DNA of 64,000 nt, from positions 1 to 64,000 of IMG/VR virus record IMGVR_UViG_3300049182_000044. One strand, written 5' to 3'. The position numbers and the translations under genes are program-made. Source of the stretch: a virus. Taxonomy: Duplodnaviria; Caudoviricetes. Numbering within the stretch: position 1 is the first letter of the stretch; each line of letters begins with the position of its first letter. The notes below the pieces were generated by a model that was given only the letters and a program-made list of their open reading frames with translations, was not told the DNA's origin and searched no databases. Positions 22,228 to 61,057 of this stretch are shown here, piece after piece.

Positions 22228-23886
22228 TTACTTCTTTCCTTTCTTCAGTTTGACCTTCTTTTTACCTTTGACCTTCACAGCCTTCGTCGAATCAATCGAG
22301 ACCTCTTCGTCTTTGATGACCTTCTTGGCTTTCTTTCCGGCCTTCTTATCCTTTACAGCAGCCTTCTTGTCTTGAGCTTCGACCTTCTTCGGCTTCTTTG
22401 GTTTGCCGTCGCCGCCGTTGTTCAGGTCTTGCACGACGCTCTCCATCGCTGATATACGAGCCAGCACACGCTTCTTCTTTTCGTCGAATGTCTGCAATTC
22501 ATTGCCTGCGTTGTCATCACCCGTAGTGGTCTCACCCGTAACAGGGAACAGCGAGTTGGTCAGCGTGATCGGCTTCTCAGAAGTGATCTCCAGGATATTG
22601 CGGTAACGCTTACGCGCCACTTCAATGCCCTTCTCAGTCGCAACGTCGATGAAGTCCATCGCTTGTTTGACAGACTGCAGCTTCGGATGGCTCTTCAACT
22701 GTGTGTACACCAGCTCGTTGTATTCCTTGCTGGTCAACGAATCGGCTGCCTCTTGCAACTGCTTCGAGTAACGCGTCATTTCGATTGCGTTGTGGATCGA
22801 CAGTAGTTCCAGCGTGAAACGATTAGCACCAAAAGCCAGAATGTCAGTGTACTTCAATGCCTTGCAAACCTCGCACTGACATGGCAGCAGCTTCTGAGTA
22901 TTCGGGATTGATCCACGTGAGCCGATCGGGATACGCTTCGATGTGTGATACAGGTCGAACTGGAAGTGGTATGCCTTGTTCGACGCCGACTGAATGTGCG
23001 ACGTAGAGTCAGACGTGATGTGTGGCTTCCAAGTGGAATTGGCGAGCTTCACCAGAACCGGAATGTGCAGCGAACCGAAAACACCCAGCATGTGATATTG
23101 CTTGTATTTCTGTCCGGTGTTCACCAAGTCCCAGATGATGTCCACACCGCCTAACAAACCTTGGCGGTACAAACCACCGACCGCGCAACGAGGCAGACGC
23201 TTGTCTTCAACGATCTTACGATACGCACGACGTTGATTGATATTGTGACCGTGAAAGATGTTCAGCAGCTCCACACCCTTCGCACGCTCGAGCATGATCT
23301 CGGTCGAAGCCTTCTGAAGCTTCGCCGCACGATCAATGATCTCGTCATTAGCGACCGAAAGCGGAAGATCGAGTACCATGCCGGCGTCTGCATTCTGATT
23401 GTAGAACTCAACCAGATCTGCAGGGCTAATGGCTCCGATCATGTCACGCGCCATCTGAAGTCCACCGGAGTCGGACAAAACATTGATACGTTGATCATCG
23501 GGAATGCGGGAAGGAGTACGGGGATTGACCGTGCCCTTCGAGTGCGCGAAGTTCGTCATGATGTATTCGATACCTAGACGCTTGCACACTGAATCGTTGA
23601 ACAGGTTGAAGTCGTAGAACTCGTCAAAGGATTCGCCGTATGGATAGAATGCATCCATCATATCGTTATTGCGAACGATCACGATCTCACGATCAGGACA
23701 AACGAACCAGATATGCGTACTCGTTTGTTCCTTGATCGTGATCTTGTGCGGGTCACCACCTTTGTACTTGATGTAGACTGCGAGACCGCCGAAGCTGCGA
23801 AACAGCGCTGCAGCTGCGACGAATGAGTACCCATGATCCGGGCACGGAGGAGAAGTGTATTTTGTTTTGGTAGATTTGTCGGACAT
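22228..23886 (-). CDS. dpdA: tRNA-guanine-transglycosylase-fold base-exchange enzyme, probable DNA-acting DpdA, with Lys-rich tail
   Basis: SDSGGLQ, MVLD, VGGL, HMLG, SDSTS and Zn site CQCEVC..HN. DNA versus tRNA substrate is inferred from context. Confidence 0.75.
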   Translation of the reverse strand: MSDKSTKTKYTSPPCPDHGYSFVAAAALFRSFGGLAVYIKYKGGDPHKITIKEQTSTHIWFVCPDREIVIVRNNDMMDAFYPYGESFDEFYDFNLFNDSVCKRLGIEYIMTNFAHSKGTVNPRTPSRIPDDQRINVLSDSGGLQMARDMIGAISPADLVEFYNQNADAGMVLDLPLSVANDEIIDRAAKLQKASTEIMLERAKGVELLNIFHGHNINQRRAYRKIVEDKRLPRCAVGGLYRQGLLGGVDIIWDLVNTGQKYKQYHMLGVFGSLHIPVLVKLANSTWKPHITSDSTSHIQSASNKAYHFQFDLYHTSKRIPIGSRGSIPNTQKLLPCQCEVCKALKYTDILAFGANRFTLELLSIHNAIEMTRYSKQLQEAADSLTSKEYNELVYTQLKSHPKLQSVKQAMDFIDVATEKGIEVARKRYRNILEITSEKPITLTNSLFPVTGETTTGDDNAGNELQTFDEKKKRVLARISAMESVVQDLNNGGDGKPKKPKKVEAQDKKAAVKDKKAGKKAKKVIKDEEVSIDSTKAVKVKGKKKVKLKKGKK

Positions 23887-29987: not shown

Positions 29988-30518
29988 TTACATGGTCGCA
30001 GCTAGACCCTTTTTGAATTTACCATACCCTGACTCCAGAAACTCGAATGGCTTAACATCGAGATACACTGACGCGCCGTAAATACTTATATTCGCGGCGT
30101 CGATCCTGTGAGGAACCAACTCTGATTCCTTATACAATGCATCCAGATCTTGCACTCGATTGAAAGCGTTCTTCCATTGTGCTGCAGTCAACAGCATCAA
30201 GTCCTCTACCTCGAACTCCGAAAGCACTCCGAGCATGAACGAAACCAACTCGCCTGTGTTACCGCCCATGCGTCCCCGGTTCATAAACCGTTCTGCGACG
30301 ATGACGTCCACATCGTACTTGGCGATCAGCCCACCGATCTCTGCCTTGAATGCTTCCTTCTGACTGATAAGTGCTCCAGTCAAATCCGTTACCGTGTTCT
30401 CAATCATCCCCGTCTCGTGAAACCGATAACGAAACGGAAGTTTGAGCTTCACTTCTGTGACTGCAAACGCGAAATTGCTTTTTCCAGGGTCGAGCCCGAG
30501 AATGGTGAAAGATTTCAT
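29988..30518 (-). CDS. ruvC: RuvC-like Holliday junction resolvase
   Basis: ILGLDPG, VAE, HRIDA acidic triad. Confidence 0.75.
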   Translation of the reverse strand: MKSFTILGLDPGKSNFAFAVTEVKLKLPFRYRFHETGMIENTVTDLTGALISQKEAFKAEIGGLIAKYDVDVIVAERFMNRGRMGGNTGELVSFMLGVLSEFEVEDLMLLTAAQWKNAFNRVQDLDALYKESELVPHRIDAANISIYGASVYLDVKPFEFLESGYGKFKKGLAATM

Positions 30519-30595
30519 GTTGTTCTCCTTTCACCCACATTACAAAAGACAACCTTGAATTTGAACACCTACAGATTGCCTCTCGAATACAATGT

Positions 30596-30603
30596 CTTTA
30601 CAG
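30596..30603 (-). promoter_or_regulatory. Candidate phage promoter CTGTAAAG
   Basis: About 78 nt upstream of the ruvC-like gene. Confidence 0.45.
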
Positions 30604-30657
30604 TATCTGAGTGGCAATTTTCGTAATTTCCTTGTATCAACCACATGGGAATTCATC

Positions 30658-31767
30658 ATGGGAATCAAGAGTGGAACACCTAGAATTAAAAGGGTTCACG
30701 CTAAAAACTACATCAGCAAACAAGCTGATGCTCGTCTTAAGGAAGCAGTACGTCCTTATCAAGAGATGGGAAAGCAAGCGTTGGGTGTGGACTCATTTGA
30801 AGTAAAATATTACCAGCAGACGAAATCAACTACGATCTGCACATGCAAACAGACCACGCTGTTCCAGCATCACGCTTCAGTTGTTGAGCCGAGCCGCAAT
30901 GTGCCAGTCACGTTGGCGAAGAACGACAGCATAATCGAAGAGACAGTTAGCATCGACTATGATCGTCCACTGTTCGGCTTCCATTCCGAACGTGAATTGC
31001 AAGATGAGCCAACAACTCTCGGCGATGAATTTGACTTTGTTGACGAGGAAGATGGCAGCAGCGGAGGCCAGCCTGCGACACTGGACAACTTGTTTGCCGC
31101 CGGCACAGACTGCGGCATCTGCTACAAGACTGGCTTCGTACCCGGCTACTCGGCATATGGCTTTGAACGGCATGTTTTGGCGACGCACAACATCGCTGAT
31201 GTTTATGGCTACCACATGGACGTAACGAGCGCACCGCACAAGATGAGGCGTCTCGACATGCGCGAAGGCTACGTTGACTTTGAAGTGGATGTACCTCGCT
31301 ACTTCAAAGACGTTAATGTGTCTGTGCGTAACAACACTGACATTCTGCCGGACACGCTGTACACCATCCTCGGACAAGACGATCGTCTGACATTTAACGA
31401 AGTGAAGTTGAATGCTGGGAAGAAGATGGTGGTGCGCGTATTGGCAGCAGAGTTTACCCACGTAGTCATTGAGTTTGACCTCGGCACAGAGAAACTTCTC
31501 GCCAATCTTGCTCAAATGACCAAGACCGTGGACTGGACGTTGTTCGATACACTGGGCAATATCAACATCATTCTGCCGATGACTATCAGTTCGGTAAACG
31601 CAAACGATGTTATCTATGTACCGAAACGTCAAGCACTGTTTAAGATCACGGATGTAACTTATTTGCGCACTGCAGATGAGCGAAATCTGGATTGGAGCGT
31701 GAACACTCGTGTGCTTCAACCACAAGAAGCGCTGGGTCGTATCAGCAAATCATTTAAACTGTTCTAA
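30658..31767 (+). CDS. Probable virion neck/head-completion protein
   Basis: Start of the plus-strand late block; CTC..CGIC; beta-rich C-terminus. Function inferred. Confidence 0.4.
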   Translation: MGIKSGTPRIKRVHAKNYISKQADARLKEAVRPYQEMGKQALGVDSFEVKYYQQTKSTTICTCKQTTLFQHHASVVEPSRNVPVTLAKNDSIIEETVSIDYDRPLFGFHSERELQDEPTTLGDEFDFVDEEDGSSGGQPATLDNLFAAGTDCGICYKTGFVPGYSAYGFERHVLATHNIADVYGYHMDVTSAPHKMRRLDMREGYVDFEVDVPRYFKDVNVSVRNNTDILPDTLYTILGQDDRLTFNEVKLNAGKKMVVRVLAAEFTHVVIEFDLGTEKLLANLAQMTKTVDWTLFDTLGNINIILPMTISSVNANDVIYVPKRQALFKITDVTYLRTADERNLDWSVNTRVLQPQEALGRISKSFKLF

Positions 31768-32036
31768 TTGATGCAAAGGAGAGGAAAATGAAGAAGTCTT
31801 TGCTGTAATCTGACAAATCGCGTTGCATTTATGCTACAAACTGTGCCAAATCGGTCAATCGAACACGTTTGGCACACGTTTGTCATGCACATTGTTGAGA
31901 TCAAAAGTGTGTATTTTGTAGCGCAGCATAATAATTTTTTGATGTGATTTCAAAAGACATTTTGAGTCATACACACATCAGATCTGAACTGTGTTGATTT
32001 AATTCTCATTTCAATTTCCTAACAAGGAGTAACACC

Positions 32037-32942
32037 ATGGCAATCCAACGCCGCCTGAAGAACGTGGCTGACACGTCCATCGCAAAGAAACGCAAGAAGA
32101 AAAAGACCGACGCCAAGTCGATCGCCGCTCGCAAGAAGGCAAAAGCTTACCGCATGAAGAACAAGGGCAAGCTGAAGGTCGCGCGCAAGAAGCGCGAGAT
32201 GAAGAAGACGGCCGCTGAAAAAGCGTTCGAGAAGAAGCACAAGGAAATCGTTGCCGAGAAGCTGCACGGCAAGAAGAAGAAGGCCAAGAAGGCAGGCAAG
32301 GTCGCCGCTGGTGATGCCAAGGGCGCACGCGCCAAGGCAAAGGAAGAGCGTCTGAAGGCCAAGGCAGCGAAGAAGGCCGCTGCTGAAGCCAAGAAGAAGG
32401 CAGCCGCTGCCAAGAAGGAACTCGCCAAGGCTCACAAGGCTGCGAAGAAGTCCCTGGTCACCAAGCACAAGCAAGCGCTGAAGAAGCTCGTCGGCGATCA
32501 CAAGAAGAAGTTGTCCTCGCTCGGCGGCAAGGCCAAGACGGCGAAGAAGTCGGTTGCCAAGAAGGCCAAGGTCGTTGTGAAAGCAGCGAAGAAGACCGCT
32601 AAGGTCGCTGTCAAGAAGGCGAAGAAAGTAGCCAAGAAGGCAGCAGCCGCTCCGGCAGCTAAGGCACCGAAGGCCAAGAAGGCGAAGAAGGCAAAAGCAG
32701 CTAAGGCTGCTAAGCCGGCAGCCAAGAAGGCCAAGGCACCGAAGGCCAAGAAGGCAGCTAAGGTAGCAAAGGCACCGAAGGCTAAGAAGGCCAAAGTCGC
32801 CAAGGCACCGAAGGCCAACAAGGTCCCGAAGGCAGCCAAGAAGGCAGCTAAGAAAGTCGCTTCCAAGACCACGACCAAGAAGGTCGGTCTGAAGAAGAAG
32901 ACCGCAAAGCCGCTCGCTAAGAAGGCACGTCCGCATCTGTAA
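32037..32942 (+). CDS. Histone H1-like Lys/Ala-rich DNA-binding protein 1
   Basis: Almost entirely K/A/P repeats (KAPKAKK, AAKKA); AAGGAG RBS. Confidence 0.8.
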   Translation: MAIQRRLKNVADTSIAKKRKKKKTDAKSIAARKKAKAYRMKNKGKLKVARKKREMKKTAAEKAFEKKHKEIVAEKLHGKKKKAKKAGKVAAGDAKGARAKAKEERLKAKAAKKAAAEAKKKAAAAKKELAKAHKAAKKSLVTKHKQALKKLVGDHKKKLSSLGGKAKTAKKSVAKKAKVVVKAAKKTAKVAVKKAKKVAKKAAAAPAAKAPKAKKAKKAKAAKAAKPAAKKAKAPKAKKAAKVAKAPKAKKAKVAKAPKANKVPKAAKKAAKKVASKTTTKKVGLKKKTAKPLAKKARPHL

Positions 32943-32977
32943 TCTCAGGTCGGAAAGCTGAATAAGCGATCTTAATG

Positions 32978-33020
32978 AAATGGGCCCAAATGTTTAATCG
33001 CATTTCGGGCCCATTTTTGT
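32978..33020 (+). terminator. Hairpin terminator between the H1-like genes
   Basis: AAATGGGCCC / GGGCCCATTT plus T-run. Confidence 0.7.
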
Positions 33021-33043
33021 ATCTACACTCAATCGAGGCAAAC

Positions 33044-34006
33044 ATGGCAACGAAGAAAACCGCAGCAAAGAAACCCGCTGCAAAGAAGAAAGCTGCGGCG
33101 AAGAAGCCAGCAGCCAAGAAAACCACTGTGAAGAAAGTGGCGAAGAAGACCACAGCCAAGAAGACTGCGGCGAAGAAACCGGCAGTGAAGAAGGCCAAGC
33201 CTGCTGCAAAGAAAGCTGCACCGGCTAAGAAGAAGCGCAAGCTGAAGGGCGTTAACGATCTGAGCATCGTCAAACAACGTGCCAAGGGCAAGAAGAAAGG
33301 CGCAGCTGCAGTCAAAGCTCGTCTGAAGAACAAGCAATACCGCCTGAAGAACAAGGCGAAGATCAAGCAGAAAGCCAAGGTCCGCAAGGCCAAGATGACG
33401 GCGGCGGAAAAGGCTTTCAACAAGAAGCACAAGGAAGTCATCAAGAAGCATCACGCCAAGACCAAGGGCAAGATCGCTAAGCTGAAAGAAAACCACACCG
33501 CCAAGATCGCGAAGCTGAAAGCCAAGAAGCAGACGCCGAACGTCAAGGCAAAGATCCAGGCTACGAAGGCCAAGCACACCGAGAAGGTCACGGCGCTGAA
33601 GCAGGCTCACGAGAAGAAGAAAGAATCGCTCCTTTCCAAACTCGGCGGCCTGGCTAAGAAGGCTGTGAAGACCGGAACAAAGGCGGTCAAGAAGGCCCTG
33701 AACATGGGCAAGAAGACCAAGAAGGTCAAGATCGACAAAGGCTTCAAGAACGTCACTCCGAAACAAGGCGCTAAGGCGAACAAGGCTCGTAAGGCCAAGC
33801 TTGGCGCGAAGAAAGTTCCGACCGTGAAGAAACGTTCTGCAAAAGAACTTGAGTCGTTCGAGGGATCGCCGCGCAAGAAGTCCAAGATCTCAAAGATCGT
33901 TCCGAGCAAAAAGGGCTCTAAGAAGGTCACGAAGGTAGTCAAGAAAGCAGCGAAGAAAGTCTCGCTGAAGAAGGCTAAGAAGCCGGCCAAGAAGTCCAAG
34001 AAGTAA
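33044..34006 (+). CDS. Histone H1-like Lys/Ala-rich DNA-binding protein 2
   Basis: Starts MATKKTAAKKPAAKK (GAGG RBS); shares the core YRxKNKxKxK..TAAEKAFxKKHKE with protein 1. Confidence 0.8.
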   Translation: MATKKTAAKKPAAKKKAAAKKPAAKKTTVKKVAKKTTAKKTAAKKPAVKKAKPAAKKAAPAKKKRKLKGVNDLSIVKQRAKGKKKGAAAVKARLKNKQYRLKNKAKIKQKAKVRKAKMTAAEKAFNKKHKEVIKKHHAKTKGKIAKLKENHTAKIAKLKAKKQTPNVKAKIQATKAKHTEKVTALKQAHEKKKESLLSKLGGLAKKAVKTGTKAVKKALNMGKKTKKVKIDKGFKNVTPKQGAKANKARKAKLGAKKVPTVKKRSAKELESFEGSPRKKSKISKIVPSKKGSKKVTKVVKKAAKKVSLKKAKKPAKKSKK

Positions 34007-34021
34007 CCAACGGAGGTCACC

Positions 34022-34213
34022 ATGGCCTATAAAACCGTTCGTGTGAAAACACGTAAGTTGACGCCGATGCAGAGCATCACCCGGCGACGCAAGTTCATCG
34101 CAAAGTTGCAACGCAGTAAAGACCCACGTAAAGTGGAGAAGATTGCGTTCCACAATGCTGCGATCAAATCGTTGCAGGCGAAGATGCGTCTGAAGAACCA
34201 AAAGCGTAAGTAG
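34022..34213 (+). CDS. Small highly basic protein
   Basis: 63 aa, K/R-rich; GGAGG RBS. Confidence 0.7.
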   Translation: MAYKTVRVKTRKLTPMQSITRRRKFIAKLQRSKDPRKVEKIAFHNAAIKSLQAKMRLKNQKRK

Positions 34214-34219
34214 TAACGT

Positions 34220-34252
34220 AGGGACCCATATCTAAACGGTATGGGTCCTTTC
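34220..34252 (+). terminator. Intrinsic terminator
   Basis: AGGGACCCATA / TATGGGTCCTT-T. Confidence 0.75.
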
Positions 34253-34271
34253 GTCATTTGAGGTCGAAAAA

Positions 34272-34741: not shown

Positions 34742-36142
34742 ATGAAGGCGAAATCTGCATTAGACACGATGGAACGCATTCGCAAGGCTCGTAGCCTGAA
34801 CGACGTTGTATCCATCGTCCGCGACATTGCAAAGAACGTCGTTGCACAGCAAAAGAGTGTGACGAAAATGGGTGTATCCCTATCCGCCGGCAAGAAAATC
34901 AAAGACGAGACACTTGACATTGACCACACTGGCAAGAAGCCGGTTCGTGTGCGAGTCGGATCGAAGAAAAAGAAGGGTTCTGCACCTTTGAGTAGCGGAG
35001 CCAAGCTGGAGGGTTTCAAAGCTCCTCCTGCCGGACAAGTCAAAGAACACATGGAAGTCGTGCACCAGTTGCATGACAACGTAAAGCAACTGGAAGCCGC
35101 TCGTGCGCTGATCGAGCAGGCGTTTTCCCGTTCTGCGAAGAAGGATGTTGCCTTGAAGGGTATTGATGCCCTGATTAAGGACAGCACCAAGATCGTGAAC
35201 AACGCTTACGACATGATGGAAGAAATCTCGAAAAAGCACATTCCTGAAGAACTCGAAGAGATGAATCAATCTCTGTTCGACTTCTTGCTCGAGGCTGTTC
35301 CACAAGACAAGTACGCCAACATCATCCAGGGCACCTACGTGACTCTGCGTGAAACGGATTCCTCAGTTGCTCCTGCTGGCAAAGGTCCGAGTAAGCTGAA
35401 GATGAATACGGACTTCGTGTTCTCGTGCTACAACGTTCTCGAAAATCTGGAAGCCAGCGATGGCTACTTCTTCCCGAAATACGTACTGGTGCTGACCGGC
35501 GTGGTCGACCACCGTACCAAGGAAGGAAAGCCACATAGCGTCCTGCGTTACTTCCTGAATGCTTTGCCGGATTTCCGCGAGCCAGGAAAATACGATCTGG
35601 GCGCTGAAGTGCGGGACGAAGCGGACATGATGCATCGTGCGTCCCTCCTGCTTGCTCACAATTCCGTAGTCGTTCCGTTTGAACGTAAACCGATGCCACT
35701 CACCGATTCCGATGTGAAGACCAAAGGCTTCCACGGCATCCCGAACGTAGCTCGCGCTTATGTAGATGACGATCAACTGTGCGTCGTGGTCAAGAAGGGC
35801 AAGGCCAATACGGCTAACATTCAGAAGATTCAGACTGAAGTGATGTCTCTTCTGACTGCTGTCATCCGCACACCGAAGAAGGTCAAAGAAGCGGGGCCGA
35901 CGGGTAAGGGTGGTACTGTATTCAAATCCGCAGGTCGCGGCTCGGTCATTCTGCCGGCGCGTCCGGTGAAGGAAGGCGACAACACGGTTCTCAAGTTCTC
36001 GCTAATCCCTAACATCCCGGAAACCGATGCACAGCAGAAGTACACGGTCAATGTGGCTAAGCTGAAAGATCTGCAGGAGATGCTGGAACTGCCTGATGAC
36101 GTTATGTCCGAAGTCAAGAAGGCCTTGAAGCATCACATCTAA
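34742..36142 (+). CDS. Probable virion (head) protein with VSLSA motif at residues 45-49
   Basis: 466-aa ORF in the late block. Confidence 0.55.
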   Translation: MKAKSALDTMERIRKARSLNDVVSIVRDIAKNVVAQQKSVTKMGVSLSAGKKIKDETLDIDHTGKKPVRVRVGSKKKKGSAPLSSGAKLEGFKAPPAGQVKEHMEVVHQLHDNVKQLEAARALIEQAFSRSAKKDVALKGIDALIKDSTKIVNNAYDMMEEISKKHIPEELEEMNQSLFDFLLEAVPQDKYANIIQGTYVTLRETDSSVAPAGKGPSKLKMNTDFVFSCYNVLENLEASDGYFFPKYVLVLTGVVDHRTKEGKPHSVLRYFLNALPDFREPGKYDLGAEVRDEADMMHRASLLLAHNSVVVPFERKPMPLTDSDVKTKGFHGIPNVARAYVDDDQLCVVVKKGKANTANIQKIQTEVMSLLTAVIRTPKKVKEAGPTGKGGTVFKSAGRGSVILPARPVKEGDNTVLKFSLIPNIPETDAQQKYTVNVAKLKDLQEMLELPDDVMSEVKKALKHHI

Positions 36143-36226: not shown

Positions 36227-37408
36227 ATGCAACATCGTCAACAGGTGGTGAACTTCCGAACGTCAGAGTTTCCTCTGTCGGGAGCATTTGCACCTTTCCT
36301 ACTCAAGCCGAGGATGACGTACATCAACATCGGTGACCTCTTTGAATATGTCGCTGATCTGCTCTGGCACACAACTGGCGTCTTGACCAATCGCGTTGAC
36401 TTCACACTCGTCAACGCTTTCTCGCCCTTCACCGGATTCTCATACGGCTCTCACCCCATCCCGCCTAAACTTGCTTGGCCGACTGGGAAGAGCCTTATCC
36501 TTACCTTTGCGATCAGTGCGATCGACCCGTACACTGAAACGACAGAGCTGAAACTGAATCAAACGGCACGGCTGAGCAACAAGCATACTCGCTGGAGCTA
36601 TAGAGACGGTGCGCAGGACTATGTTTCGATTTCGGTGGACACCACAGTCGGTGCAGAGCTTGGCATTCGCTACCCCAAATTCAATGAGCTGCAATACATC
36701 TACAACTTGATCGGTGCAATGTCGAAGTCTATGGTTCGCCGTCAGACGGTTTATCGCAGCCCGAACGAGTCGTATGAAGAGCTGCACGAAAGCTATTCTC
36801 TGGTGAATTTGCATTCGCGCATTTTCAACATGCCGATCAAGAACTTGTTCAATCAGATTCCGTACCACTTGTGGGTGTTCAATGGCAACCTCTGGCGTTT
36901 GGCACCTAATGTCATCCCCCAGCGTTTGATTACCCCTCAGGCAGCCCTGTACTTCTTCATGTATCTGAGCGATGTAACTCGCTTCTCGCGCTGTGTCGGC
37001 GACGTGACGATGAAACGTCTCGGTCTCGAACTTGGAACTACGGAAGAAGGCATCGTCGGTCTGCTGACCAAGAGCGTGCTGAATATGGTGCAAATGATTA
37101 AGACTCCGGGCGACCGTGATCTGTCTGATCTGGAATTGCTTGCACCAGCGGTCCTTCAGGCGCTCCTGATTACAGGCAGCTCGACGATCAAGACACGTTC
37201 CTCATATCGTGCAGATCTCATTGCAAGTACAAAGATGTTGATCGAGGACCTTCAGGCACGCGAGAACGATCTCGGGCACTTGTTTATGCCGCCACGCGAA
37301 ACAGCACGCAAACTCATTTTAGAGGATCGCAACTACATTCGGATGATCGAGAACGCAATGGTGTTCCCTCAGTCGGATTTAGATAGCGATCCAATGGAGG
37401 TATCATGA
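36227..37408 (+). CDS. Hypothetical protein (late block)
   Basis: 393-aa ORF with GGAG RBS. Confidence 0.7.
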   Translation: MQHRQQVVNFRTSEFPLSGAFAPFLLKPRMTYINIGDLFEYVADLLWHTTGVLTNRVDFTLVNAFSPFTGFSYGSHPIPPKLAWPTGKSLILTFAISAIDPYTETTELKLNQTARLSNKHTRWSYRDGAQDYVSISVDTTVGAELGIRYPKFNELQYIYNLIGAMSKSMVRRQTVYRSPNESYEELHESYSLVNLHSRIFNMPIKNLFNQIPYHLWVFNGNLWRLAPNVIPQRLITPQAALYFFMYLSDVTRFSRCVGDVTMKRLGLELGTTEEGIVGLLTKSVLNMVQMIKTPGDRDLSDLELLAPAVLQALLITGSSTIKTRSSYRADLIASTKMLIEDLQARENDLGHLFMPPRETARKLILEDRNYIRMIENAMVFPQSDLDSDPMEVS

Positions 37409-38550
37409 TTCACTATGCGATTGACGGAGCCGTACTTGCGGTGACGCAGAAGTTCATTGACGAGGACTCGGAACAGCCTTTGCTTGCCGCTCCTGGGTAT
37501 CCTCAAGTCAAACTGATTGATGCGGAAAAGAATCGCCTGAGTTCTACTATCGGTAGCCCGACCGCTATCCCAGGTGAATGGAGTGCCAATATCTCTATTC
37601 CGAATCTGGGAGTTGCTGACAAGACTGAGCTACGTTTGATCTGGCGTTTTCTCACCACCGATAACGAGCGCATTGTCGAGAAGGATGTGGTGGTTGTCGA
37701 GCCGCGTGTGGAGTCTCGCGTTTCGGATATCGTTGCGGTGTTCGGTGATCAGAAATTCGCACTGACGTTGCCCGTGTACTTCGGTGGCACAGATACGGCT
37801 GAGTATTATCTGTATCGTGACAACGATATGATTCTGAGTGCCCCAGGTAACCTGGCTGACACCGCGCTCTATCAACGCACTACAACGGTTGACCGTACCA
37901 ATTTCCTACTTCCTCTGAATGTGCCGAATCCTTCGCTTCAAGCCTATCTGGTACGTGTCGATGTGGTGCCATGTGGCGTCGGTCACAAGAAGACGTTCAC
38001 GTACAAGTTGTGGGCGGTGACTCCTCAAATCATGAAGGGCATGTCCTTCTTGGAGGACTTCCTGAATAAGGCAAAAATCGAGAACACGATCCCCGAATTG
38101 CAGTACACGGATGGCGACTTGATTAACTATCTCGAACGCGGTCTGAATCTGTTCAACATGGTAGGCTCTATGCCCACCGCCTTCACCGGCACGAACATGC
38201 AGGGTGTGCTGTTTGATGCATGGGTGACCTGTGCTTCGTACTATGCGCTGGGCGCTCAATTGATGGCTGAGGGCGCATTGGCATTCGATTTCAGTGGTCA
38301 AGGTATTTCGCTGAACGTTGATCGTACCCCGCAGCTTGACTCTGCGCTGGGGCGTATTGAGAGCATGATCGACAGCCGCATCGTCCCGCTCAAGAAAGCT
38401 CTGCAAACTCAGGGCGTTACCAGTGGTGACGGTTCTGTGGGTAAGACCACAATGCGTAATTCAGCTAATCTCGGAACACTCGGACTGACGAATGCTGCGA
38501 CAACTCGTATCCGCGGTGTGCAGAACACCTTCGTCGGCAAGAGGTGGTGA
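37405..38550 (+). CDS. Probable head-tail adaptor/neck protein
   Basis: Ig-like N-terminal half; C-terminal YTDGDL..L..GL..FN and FDFSGQG.SL.VDR resemble head-tail connector proteins. Confidence 0.5.
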   Translation: MIHYAIDGAVLAVTQKFIDEDSEQPLLAAPGYPQVKLIDAEKNRLSSTIGSPTAIPGEWSANISIPNLGVADKTELRLIWRFLTTDNERIVEKDVVVVEPRVESRVSDIVAVFGDQKFALTLPVYFGGTDTAEYYLYRDNDMILSAPGNLADTALYQRTTTVDRTNFLLPLNVPNPSLQAYLVRVDVVPCGVGHKKTFTYKLWAVTPQIMKGMSFLEDFLNKAKIENTIPELQYTDGDLINYLERGLNLFNMVGSMPTAFTGTNMQGVLFDAWVTCASYYALGAQLMAEGALAFDFSGQGISLNVDRTPQLDSALGRIESMIDSRIVPLKKALQTQGVTSGDGSVGKTTMRNSANLGTLGLTNAATTRIRGVQNTFVGKRW

Positions 38551-59698: not shown

Positions 59699-61057
59699 AT
59701 GAGACAACTACATACTGAAAAAGATGGTATCACTTACATCGACGACATACCGTTCAATGAAGTGAAATGGTACTACATGGCTCCAGTTCCGGATCGCGCT
59801 GCGTTGCAAGAGCCGCCAGAAGGCACTGAGTTCGCCATGTGCAACGATATGTCGAAACGCACGACCCATCCTGGAAGCTTCTTCGTCTGGATTTATCAGA
59901 ACGGGAAGTGGTCTGATATTTCGATTGAAATCGTCCGCAACATCCCCGATTTCATGTCGTACAACGCTGGCGAATGCCCGTGTGGGATCAAACGGCATAC
60001 CGGCATGATCGCTGGGCCTGCGGTACACAACACCGGCCCTCGCGGTACGTTCGGAGGACTGATTCACATCGACGATGCATGGGCATGCGGTCAGGATCAG
60101 ATGTGTAAAGAGAACGTAGATAACACCCGAACAAAGGAACCACAAATGACAATGCCGAGTGATGAAGAACTCGAATTGAACGAGCCGGAAAAGCGTCTGC
60201 GCATCTCCGAAGCATTTTACTCCATCGAAGGTGAAGGCCCGCTTACTGGTGTGCCTACCGTTTTCATCCGCACGTTCGGATGTAACTTCACCTGCTCCGG
60301 TTTCAGCAATCCGACTGGTCAGAAGGTCATTCCGATCAAGATCGACACTTTGCAGAAATTCAAATCGACGGTCGGTTGCGATTCCATCTATTCGTGGCAT
60401 CCGGATTACAAAGACCTCTCTCAGTGGCATACGATCTCGCAACTGGCATCGCACGTAGTTGAAGGATTGCTGCCCGGCGGCAAGGTATTGAATCCCCGCA
60501 CAGGTCAATCGCCCATCCTTTCGTTGACGGGCGGTGAACCGACAATGCACCAGGACGCGATCATTCAGTTGATTAACCATCCGATGATGCAGGACTTCGA
60601 CAAGCTGCTGATCGAAACCAATGCGGCATTCCCGTTGAAGGACGAGTTCATCGAAGGCCTCAATGTGTGGAAAGAGAAGGGTCGTGAGCGTCTTATTATC
60701 TGGGCCTGTTCGCCTAAGCTGAGCATTAGTGGTGAACCGCGTCACAAGGCGATTCGCCCGGAGATCATCGCCGCTCAAATGCAGGTGCGCGATAGTCTCC
60801 ACTATCTCAAGTTCGTTAGTGACGGGTCTACGGAGTCGTTTGAGGAAATCGTTGACACTGTAAAAGAGTACAATGATTACTTGTCGAACTTCATGATGGA
60901 ACTCGATCCGCATTCGATCTACGTCATGCCGATGGGTGCCACCCACGAACAACAAATGGAGATACAGCGCAAGGTCGCAGACAAGTGCCTCGAATACGGG
61001 TACAGCTTCTGCATTCGCGCTCACTGCTTCGTCTATAACAATGAGGTAGGGACATAA
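59699..61057 (+). CDS. queE: 7-carboxy-7-deazaguanine synthase (radical SAM) with a 149-aa N-terminal extension or internal start at 60146
   Basis: ISEAFYSIEGEG..GVPTVFIRTFGCNFTC..GCDS, LTGGEP, IETN, CSPK, LKFV, YVMP. Confidence 0.88.
   Translation: MRQLHTEKDGITYIDDIPFNEVKWYYMAPVPDRAALQEPPEGTEFAMCNDMSKRTTHPGSFFVWIYQNGKWSDISIEIVRNIPDFMSYNAGECPCGIKRHTGMIAGPAVHNTGPRGTFGGLIHIDDAWACGQDQMCKENVDNTRTKEPQMTMPSDEELELNEPEKRLRISEAFYSIEGEGPLTGVPTVFIRTFGCNFTCSGFSNPTGQKVIPIKIDTLQKFKSTVGCDSIYSWHPDYKDLSQWHTISQLASHVVEGLLPGGKVLNPRTGQSPILSLTGGEPTMHQDAIIQLINHPMMQDFDKLLIETNAAFPLKDEFIEGLNVWKEKGRERLIIWACSPKLSISGEPRHKAIRPEIIAAQMQVRDSLHYLKFVSDGSTESFEEIVDTVKEYNDYLSNFMMELDPHSIYVMPMGATHEQQMEIQRKVADKCLEYGYSFCIRAHCFVYNNEVGT

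Follow-up and report, generated by a model that had tools for sequence, protein, structure and literature searches.

Two lysine-rich genes lying in tandem in the 281-kb genome of an uncultured phage, P0001 and P0002, encode proteins built around a common core which, judging from sequence comparisons, is a previously undescribed conserved domain or family of jumbo phages of the PaBG/Lu11/Y3 type. A distant homolog, gp191 of Pseudomonas phage PaBG, occurs in purified virions, and P0001 and P0002 therefore most probably accompany the phage DNA within the head. We lean towards regarding them as polycationic virion proteins of a new family, with the packaged genome as their binding target. The virion evidence concerns PaBG gp191; the phage analysed here is known from its genome.

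The positions of the genes and of the elements found in and around them in the window (the whole 64,000-nucleotide stretch of DNA that was analysed) are collected in Table 1. Both products have a strongly biased composition (36% K, 17-28% A and 3% P), P0001 containing 36% K and 28% A, with a pI of 11.2 and a net charge of +106, and P0002 containing 36% K, with a pI of 11.25 and a net charge of +112. The original prediction described two K/A/P-rich proteins with a common non-repetitive core and an LS[SK]LGG element in each, and both observations held: BLASTP with compositional adjustment aligned 87 aa of the two at 49% identity (E 6e-13), and the LSSLGG of P0001 and the LSKLGG of P0002 were mutually aligned. 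This similarity far exceeds the effect of common lysine richness, and by the alignment the two proteins are true paralogs, duplicated members of one family. They are the only copies detected by the core HMM in the 281-kb genome.

Table 1. Features of the P0001-P0003 locus, numbered from the first letter of the window.
Feature	Position	Strand	Description
Intergenic leader 5' of P0001	31768-32036	+	269 nt; includes the Shine-Dalgarno sequence AAGGAG
P0001	32037-32942	+	301 aa; AAGGAG at 32024-32029, 7 nt 5' of ATG
P0001 conserved core, aa 1-75	32037-32261	+	From MAIxRxLKxVxD (N-terminal) to TxAEKxFxKKH; core HMM 86 bits
LSSLGG element, P0001	32511-32528	+	
P0001 polycationic C-terminal tail	32529-32939	+	Imperfect 9/18-nt repeats (KAPKAK type) at 32732-32854
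Intrinsic terminator P0001/P0002	32977-33022	+	Hairpin 32977-33017, 17-pair stem, then UUUUU
P0002	33044-34006	+	320 aa; GAGG 5' of ATG
P0002 N-terminal AAKKP-type repeats	33047-33229	+	Periods of 15, 33 and 42 nt
P0002 conserved core, aa 63-137	33230-33454	+	Core HMM 96 bits
LSKLGG element, P0002	33632-33649	+	
P0003	34022-34213	+	63 aa, 35% K+R; GGAGG 5' of ATG
Strong hairpin closing the P0002-P0003 unit	34216-34254	+	dG -23.9 kcal/mol, z -6.0

The two paralogs differ in layout. In P0001 the core comes first and is followed by a K/A-rich helical middle part, LSSLGG and a KAPKAK-type tail; P0002 starts with AAKKP repeats, after which come the core, a helical middle part, LSKLGG and a basic tail. 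The repeats-first architecture of P0002 recurs in protein P0011 of phage L007 and in a cut ORF of L008, and counterparts of LSSLGG were found in L007 P0011 (VKLGG) and in gp185 of Erwinia phage Y3 (RLKGGK). Long ORFs are also present on the opposite strand (for example 32019-32936, minus strand); by their codon usage these are shadow ORFs, since the best antisense frame scores -0.04 to +0.12 per codon, compared with +0.53 to +0.57 in the frames adopted here. The most likely start of P0002 is the ATG at 33044, directly past the terminator, the upstream ATG at 32975 being situated within the hairpin.

P0001 and P0002 belong to separate, terminator-bounded transcription units. A terminator between the paralogs had already been noticed on first reading of the sequence, and the folding calculations bear this out: the dG of its hairpin is -23.4 kcal/mol (z -5.4), and none of 200 shuffled sequences folded equally well. 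In the hairpin closing the second unit the U tract on the 3' side is interrupted. The promoter of P0001 is probably located within its leader, where no sigma-70-like site was found on the plus strand upstream of the gene. The sole motif obtained from upstream k-mer enrichment across this phage, AACTGTAAA, is the same as the Lu11 site annotated as 'putative middle/late promoter', and precedes the DNA polymerase, gene 22228-23886 and about 20 further genes of this phage; no copy is present in the leader, and the motif is absent 5' of both P0001 and P0002. The strong ribosome-binding sites and the flanking terminators would be compatible with high, separate expression of the two genes.

The existence of a 63-aa basic ORF 3' of P0002 was also confirmed. 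The frame of P0003 has the top codon-usage score among the six frames and is coding-like, and the gene is probably co-transcribed with P0002, from which it is separated by an 18-nt gap with GGAGG in front of the ATG. The proposed 'protamine-like peptide', on the other hand, is not conserved as a member of the module. P0003 is an orphan with no relatives found among 5.8 billion clusters, and a counterpart is absent from every related locus. We also considered that it might be a degenerate copy of the core, but this was rejected (hhalign probability 0.2%; 86 of 1000 shuffles scored equally).

The core comprises about 75 residues, is helical and has a charge of approximately +30. It is marked by h-x-R-x-L-x-x-V-x-D at the N-terminus, a KxYYxKNKxKI helix and T-x-A-E-K-x-F-x-K-K-[HR]. 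The suggestion that it could be an undescribed domain gained support from the profile search with the core that had been recommended, which revealed a family including stand-alone forms: an exhaustive HMMER search of 1.84 billion representatives found core forms of 83-88 aa, and profile searching added further ones of 81-92 aa. Core-plus-tail forms occur in the related metagenomic phages L004 and L005 (P0006 and P0007), and the metagenome scan added a single further locus, L008. Scanning 185,579 cellular genomes turned up no copy of the core, and the family appears to be phage-specific. Searches of Pfam (at E up to 0.1 for P0001 and P0002), PHROGs and NCBIfam gave no family for P0001, P0002, P0003 or the core. 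The sole match among PDB sequences was a chance one (E 2), involving the tail of a eukaryotic ribosomal protein with the annotation 'L7-A'. There was no usable match in the ESM Atlas, and nothing was found when phage records were searched by megablast with the region, in a word-indexed search with residues 1-95 of P0001 or in IMG/VR pattern scans; tblastn of P0001 and P0009 against phages was likewise negative, probably through the low-complexity filter.

What is new here is that the core is not confined to this phage, being recognisable by sequence in 'hypothetical' proteins of cultured phages. The core HMM scored 20.7 bits against Lu11_0110 (AFH14642.1), 15.8 bits against Y3 gp185 (ARW58825.1) and 9.2 bits against PaBG gp191 (PaBG_00191, AGS82067.1), and each of these scores beat all 1000 shuffles preserving local composition. 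The Y3-type alignment matched the core alignment in a profile-profile comparison with a probability of 86% (E 5e-6). Copies of Y3 gp185 are present in 58 records of cultured Erwinia, Dickeya, Salmonella and Yersinia phages; Lu11_0110, Y3 gp185 and the copies are all annotated as hypothetical. Both Lu11_0110 and Y3 gp185 share with the proteins described here the MA-x-h-x-R-x-L N-terminus and the gene position, the former having also the KAYYKKNK motif and the latter AA(D/E)KKFD. In contrast to P0001 and P0002, both are single-copy; the Y3 type has AKPKAAK repeats in place of the middle helix of the core, and Lu11_0110 bears six AT-hook-like PGRPKK repeats (KKxPGRPKKTP) missing from P0001 and P0002. 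Most members of the family also have a polycationic tail that is specific to the lineage, with AAKKP or KAPKAK repeats here and PGRPKK repeats in Lu11.

PaBG gp191 is a K/A-rich protein of 332 aa (pI 11.3) with an N-proximal core and an AKKA/AKP-type C-terminal tail, and its gene belongs to the same block, ahead of the head-to-tail joining gene. Unlike P0001 and P0002, it is encoded by a single-copy gene which comes after SbcD rather than after the phrog_21298 gene, and its core has diverged, with TPQEKL instead of TAAEKAF. Its similarity to P0001 and P0002 is seen only by profile (hhalign with the core, E 0.0095) and via L007 P0011 (BLASTP, E 4e-5); its link to the core is modest in statistical terms and depends in part on gene position. 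Two other PaBG proteins, gp158 and gp159, whose genes adjoin the phrog_21298 homolog, were ruled out as counterparts, as they are not basic.

Position upstream of the head-tail-joining block is conserved in nearly all cases. In L004, L005, L007, Y3, JA11, Alexandra and Sen-NF the core gene lies directly upstream of a homolog of w_466, after which come a homolog of w_393 and the gene for head-tail joining, and in the phage analysed here P0001 and P0002 precede a block of w_466-like, w_393-like and head-tail-joining genes. In Lu11 and PaBG the core gene is within the same block, one gene more distant from the w_466-like gene. For PaBG, gp192 has no BLASTP support as the w_466 homolog; gp193 is the better counterpart, since the structural match S5VME3 has 347 aa, the length of gp193. 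The w_466 model itself (pLDDT 68) matched no solved fold, and matched only uncharacterised proteins from the same phage group.

An indication of function better than composition comes from the PaBG virion. A gene product 191 of 35,272.92 Da, listed as 'Unknown', was identified in a Coomassie-visible band of CsCl-purified virions (Table 1 of Evseev et al. 2020, PMC7412058), and the mass calculated for gp191 is 35,272.5 Da. The protein was present in several gel bands, which the authors read as proteolysis (PMC7412058); these bands do not place it in the head, because PaBG tail proteins likewise gave several bands. A strongly basic protein that binds DNA might be carried along with virions during purification, and one may imagine a nucleoid-type protein acting inside the cell, where it would coat and compact host DNA in the course of shut-off, as in the host-nucleoid silencing suggested originally, or organise replicating phage DNA, and would get into virion preparations only through adherence to DNA or particles. 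The composition resembles that of H1, Hc1 and Hc2, and production of Hc1 in E. coli leads to nucleoid compaction and reduced synthesis, according to the work cited in PMC12619734. Genes of recombination and replication adjoin (RuvC on one side here; SbcD in PaBG, Y3 and Lu11), and P0001 and P0002 have no head-cargo tag. Nevertheless, we find this account unlikely, as gp191 is abundant enough in CsCl-banded particles to form a Coomassie band and its gene and the homologous ones consistently accompany the head-tail-joining block.

The missing tag is M-K-I-x-I-S-L-S-A (MK[IV]x[IV]SLSA), carried at the N-terminus by other putative head-cargo proteins of this phage. If it is the loading signal, P0001 and P0002 would need another route into the head; MAIxRxL, conserved at the N-terminus, might serve as another signal. 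Another proposal, which we judge quite improbable, is that of a helper of head assembly, whose core docks to a part of the prohead (portal, scaffold or core) while the polycation serves as a packaging counter-ion or an aid in DNA spooling, and is then largely cleaved or expelled. A conserved core with freely swapped tails (AAKKP, KAPKAK, PGRPKK) fits a specific protein contact combined with generic charge, the several gp191 bands might be read as processing, and the head-tail-joining block adjoins the gene. However, the core's own charge of about +30 suits nucleic-acid binding, and gp191 of full-length size (35 kDa) remains in mature PaBG virions.

AT-hooks bind the DNA minor groove, and the resemblance of the PGRPKK repeats of Lu11_0110 to them points to DNA as the ligand. 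Similar tails do bind other polyanions: those of AKP type in PhaF bind RNA (PMC12818456), and those in AlgP associate with polyphosphate (PMC11894788, PMC11513989). A PhaF-like translation factor or RNA chaperone, or an AlgP-like protein of polyphosphate granules, binding RNA, ribosomes or polyphosphate, might thus be envisaged, and ribosomal proteins including bS21 are among the top structural matches of the core, which are weak and none of them significant. We regard this as very improbable, since no ribosomal or RNA-binding Pfam family was found for the core even at E up to 10, the Lu11 repeats point to DNA and the PaBG homolog is present in virions.

The AlphaFold model of the core has three confident helices, no strands and no recognisable compact fold; of the claim that the core is folded, the helices stand, while foldedness as such is uncertain. 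Foldseek found no match to the model in the PDB, and the best Z among 48,161 chains in VIA-align was 4.0 (GapR and ribosomal proteins), which is not significant for a helical model. The top-ranking Caulobacter GapR (PDB 6jyk; DUF2312) is a basic, all-helical DNA binder of about 89 aa, but the superposition has an rmsd of 9.5 A, and there is no sequence match or Pfam hit. Prediction of a core homodimer returned a score of 0.00, 'no answer', which counts neither for nor against dimerisation.

Likeness to cellular histone-like proteins is confined to the tails. The C-terminal tail of H1, Hc1/Hc2 and the tails of AlgP and PhaF are K/A/P-rich, low-complexity, polyanion-binding repeats, whereas these cellular proteins are devoid of the core; for H1/H5 the likeness is in composition only (AAKKP and KAPKAK repeats). 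As there is no Pfam match at all, there is none to the models of H1, Hc1 or Hc2: neither the winged-helix globular domain of H1/H5 (PF00538), unlike which the core model consists of three helices with no strands, nor Hc1 (PF07432) and Hc2 (PF07382), for which Pfam and NCBIfam gave no match to P0001 or P0002, although the HMMER bias filter may suppress low-complexity matches. The G-R-P core of AT-hooks (HMGA type), which K/R residues flank, does not occur in P0001 or P0002, compared with six PGRPKK in the Lu11 homolog.

Among tailed phages, the nearest functional analogues would be IPI, IPII and IPIII of T4, small basic proteins packed into the head that remain with the DNA and are injected. 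They have no sequence similarity to P0001 and P0002 and a much lower charge density, and they bear a short capsid-targeting sequence at the N-terminus, which the prohead protease cleaves off; no such signal was recognised in P0001 or P0002. The adenovirus core proteins VII and Mu and the basic virion proteins of chlorella virus PBCV-1 (PMC3281028) are protamine- or histone-like polycations condensing the genome inside the particle; these viruses, however, infect eukaryotes and have no portal-driven packaging motor, and there is no sequence relationship.

The DNA-compaction role proposed originally is retained as the most likely one in view of the H1/Hc2/AlgP-like tails and the presence of gp191 in virions, and we infer that DNA is the ligand, that the proteins are located inside the head and that they are co-injected. 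According to the mechanism we favour, abundant P0001 and P0002 would lie alongside the packaged 281-kb genome within the head, neutralise phosphate charge of the DNA and probably enter the cell alongside it, as the T4 internal and adenovirus core proteins do. A bolder version, possible but tentative, would be that in the PaBG/Lu11/Y3 group of jumbo phages, and in uncultured relatives of the group, the genome is packaged as nucleoprotein, in which H1-like polycations, present in hundreds of copies, offset a considerable part of the charge on the DNA and are co-injected; in the cell they might shield the incoming DNA, 7-deazaguanine-modified in this phage, or act as a first phage 'chromatin', and the tandem duplication would have provided two specialised forms, one with the core first and the other with the repeats first.

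The DNA packed by tailed phages is usually described as nearly naked and accompanied by small counter-ions, and the textbook exception is that of the T4 internal proteins. At least 60 cultured jumbo phages carry the core family, and if our interpretation is true, a whole clade of jumbo phages would use protein counter-ions or 'phage chromatin'. This would bear on the condensation and ejection of genomes of 250-280 kb, on the guarding of incoming DNA from host defences, and on how polycations pass the portal motor or are loaded ahead of it. Since cultured members exist (PaBG, Lu11, Y3, Alexandra and JA11), the question is directly testable, and the family gives a clue to the function of a number of proteins so far called 'hypothetical', as well as of the 'Unknown' virion protein of PaBG.

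The neighbouring lysine-rich paralogs P0001 and P0002 lie near the beginning of a plus-strand gene block, and both were confirmed as real genes, since codon usage clearly supports the predicted frames over the long ORFs (175-305 aa) running antisense to them. The latter are shadow ORFs, produced by the richness of the coding strand in AAG and GCN codons; software that simply takes the longest ORF chooses the wrong strand for P0001. Each protein contains 36% lysine and has a pI near 11.2, with net charges of +106 (P0001) and +112 (P0002), and the tails carry imperfect short tandem repeats, of the KAPKAK type in P0001; P0002 has N-terminal repeats of the AAKKP type. The shared core and the LS[SK]LGG element noted originally were both upheld: identity reaches 49% over 87 residues (E 6e-13 after compositional correction), and LSSLGG of P0001 pairs with LSKLGG of P0002 in the full-length alignment. 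The terminator noted between the paralogs is a strong hairpin (dG -23.4 kcal/mol, z -5.4) followed by a U run, and a second strong hairpin (dG -23.9, z -6.0) also bounds the transcription units, which have strong translation signals. The start of P0002 is most likely the codon directly past the terminator; the upstream ATG at 32975 falls within the hairpin.

Coordinates of the features discussed (plus-strand block in gene order, then other features)
Feature	Position	Strand	Remark
phrog_21298 gene	30592-31767	+	first gene of block; conserved protein of no assigned function, with CTC and CGIC cysteine motifs
P0001	32037-32942	+	AAGGAG precedes ATG
P0002	from 33044 (most likely start)	+	
P0003, 63-aa ORF	34022-34213	+	K/R-rich
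119-aa ORF		+	
w_466	34742-36142	+	conserved, no assigned function
w_393	36227-37408	+	conserved, no assigned function
Head-tail connector gene	37405-38550	+	phrog_17327, E 1e-102
RuvC-like resolvase gene	29988-30518	-	divergent from phrog_21298 gene
Antisense ORFs	32019-32936; 32917-33444; 33029-33766	-	opposite P0001/P0002
Promoter-like motif sites	23945; 24907; 42812; 56295	-; +; +; +	about 20 more in the whole record
Motif-preceded gene	22228-23886		
DNA polymerase gene	56325		motif-preceded
Helicase gene, 1924 aa	50058-55832		phrog_21391
QueE-like radical-SAM gene	59699-61057		phrog_2076; beside polymerase block; fits 7-deazaguanine DNA modification
Lysine-rich ORF, 151 aa	G000:C1:207214-207669	-	outside window; no core HMM match
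Lysine-rich ORF, 171 aa	G000:C1:226265-226780	-	outside window; KKSKKDK repeats and acidic DEDEDD block; no core HMM match
DarA_C-domain gene	L005:9662-10090		same late block of a related metagenomic phage
Acb1-family anti-CBASS gene	L007:6665-7195		same late block of a related metagenomic phage

The IMG/VR virus record, rated complete by CheckV, spans 281,566 bp, and the window covers its opening 64 kb. Gene content identifies the phage as a jumbo myovirus, with Pseudomonas phages PaBG and Lu11 and the 'hairy' jumbo phages of Erwinia and Dickeya as distant relatives. A profile HMM of the core finds two copies in this genome, P0001 and P0002 only. No copy was detected among 185,579 cellular genomes; curated family libraries hold no entry matching either protein. 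An exhaustive HMMER search of 1.84 billion representatives returned just two matches, each of about 85 aa and spanning the core alone. The profile search with the core, suggested in the original prediction and performed with six cores, added three further proteins of 81-92 aa. Contigs bearing these proteins keep the gene order of the window: a phrog_21298 homolog, the core gene or genes, a w_466 homolog, in some cases an HNH gene, a w_393 homolog and the head-tail connector. Two paralogs are also present in the related metagenomic contigs L004, L005, L007 and L008. In the first two, a protein with the core and a K/A-rich tail (210 and 239 aa) precedes a core-only protein; in the other two, a core-only protein precedes a P0002-like one with AARKP-type repeats, a diverged core, VKLGG and more basic repeats.

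Whether the core deserves the label 'folded', as was proposed, is uncertain. AlphaFold, run on nine cores, gave a model with a mean pLDDT of 78, with block means of 91-95 for residues 31-60 and 86-87 for residues 21-30 and 61-70, and helices at 26-41, 43-56 and 59-77. Neither Foldseek nor an all-against-all search gave a significant structural match to the model (best Z 4.0, rmsd 9.5 A). Hydrophobic positions are few, so the core may need a polyanion or a partner to become ordered.

Among cultured phages, Erwinia phage Y3 encodes Y3_185 (225 aa, K/A/P-rich, annotated 'hypothetical protein') directly upstream of Y3_184, the w_466 homolog, and genes of this type occur in 58 cultured phage records. 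Both ends of the core are matched in Y3_185, by the N-terminus MAKVNRKLTSPKD and the motif AADKKFDGERAKHL, but AKPKAAK repeats stand in place of the core middle. Four such proteins, compared profile to profile with the aligned cores, matched over the whole core with a probability of 86% (E 5e-6). The KAYYKKNKHKI stretch of Lu11_0110 (429 aa) is almost the same as in the metagenomic cores, and the protein also has six AT-hook-like KKxPGRPKKTP repeats. PaBG_00191 (332 aa) occupies an equivalent block (SbcD, gp191, gp192-194, head-to-tail joining gene gp195). Because lysine richness inflates scores, each protein was compared with 1000 shuffles preserving local composition; the core HMM scored 15.8 bits for Y3 gp185 (best shuffle 11.2), 9.2 for PaBG gp191 (5.8) and 20.7 for Lu11_0110 (12.6). 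P0011, the L007 protein built like P0002, matches PaBG gp191 by BLASTP (E 4e-5); against the core HMM, 27 of its 1000 shuffles score equally well, and its link to the core, weak on its own, comes mainly from architecture and gene position.

The only experimental datum for the core family comes from PaBG, in which 14 Coomassie-visible bands were obtained from CsCl-purified virions, band 8 being gene product 191, listed as 'Unknown' at 35,272.92 Da (PMC7412058). The mass calculated for PaBG_00191, 35,272.5 Da, agrees with this value and leaves no doubt about the identification; the assignment of the 221-kDa helicase to gp202 likewise agrees with the numbering. Gp191 appeared in several bands, read by the authors as proteolytic processing (PMC7412058). 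Its presence in virions changes the reading of the family: what was H1-like by composition is now a probable virion protein. As to gp202, it is band 1 of the virion proteome (Table 1 in PMC7412058) and has the 1924-aa helicase as its counterpart in the window; a giant helicase is thus probably packaged in this phage group.

Several neighbours deserve separate mention. The phrog_21298 protein is kept in 81 cultured jumbo-phage records, 'hypothetical' in all, and its gene adjoins the basic genes in the closest relatives of this phage only. w_466 directly follows the basic gene or genes in most related loci, with one gene between them in PaBG and Lu11. An internal stretch of w_466, residues 42-50 (K-M-G-V-S-L-S-A-G), resembles the MKIxISLSA tags with which other proteins of this phage begin, and the AlphaFold model of w_466 (pLDDT 68) matches only uncharacterised proteins from PaBG, Lu11, Yoloswag, Motura and phiRSL1. 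P0003, which the original prediction had included as a protamine-like part of the module, did not prove conserved: it is an orphan without relatives anywhere searched, missing from all related loci, and sequence comparison shows no kinship to the core. Its ribosome-binding site is good and its codon usage resembles that of coding sequence; it may encode a genuine small basic protein specific to this lineage, though one outside the conserved module.

The sole recurrent promoter-like motif, AACTGTAAA, is not found upstream of P0001 or P0002. In the form A-ACTGTAAA-(T/G/A), it precedes about 20 start codons by 13-60 nt and matches the 'putative middle/late promoter' annotated in the Lu11 record (CTGTAAATAGATAGAA); it looks like a promoter common to this phage group.

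The core family combines a conserved basic core with interchangeable polycationic tails, and its genes are tied in fixed linkage to the head-tail-joining block. DNA would be the ligand of P0001 and P0002, as their charge and the AT-hook-like repeats of Lu11 suggest, and the proteins may accompany the genome inside the head and on its way into the cell. Both lack the MK[IV]x[IV]SLSA tag found on other proteins proposed to be cargo. On a rough scale, some 260 copies of each protein would offset about 10% of the roughly 563,000 phosphate charges of the genome. Our literature search found no paper describing proteins of this type as a family or as histone-like; unrelated Hc1-like genes were reported in 'moraphages', with speculation on genome compaction (PMC12619734). 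A polycationic DNA protein of the virion is of an already known kind; what is new is this core family, the core itself and its spread over a jumbo-phage clade.
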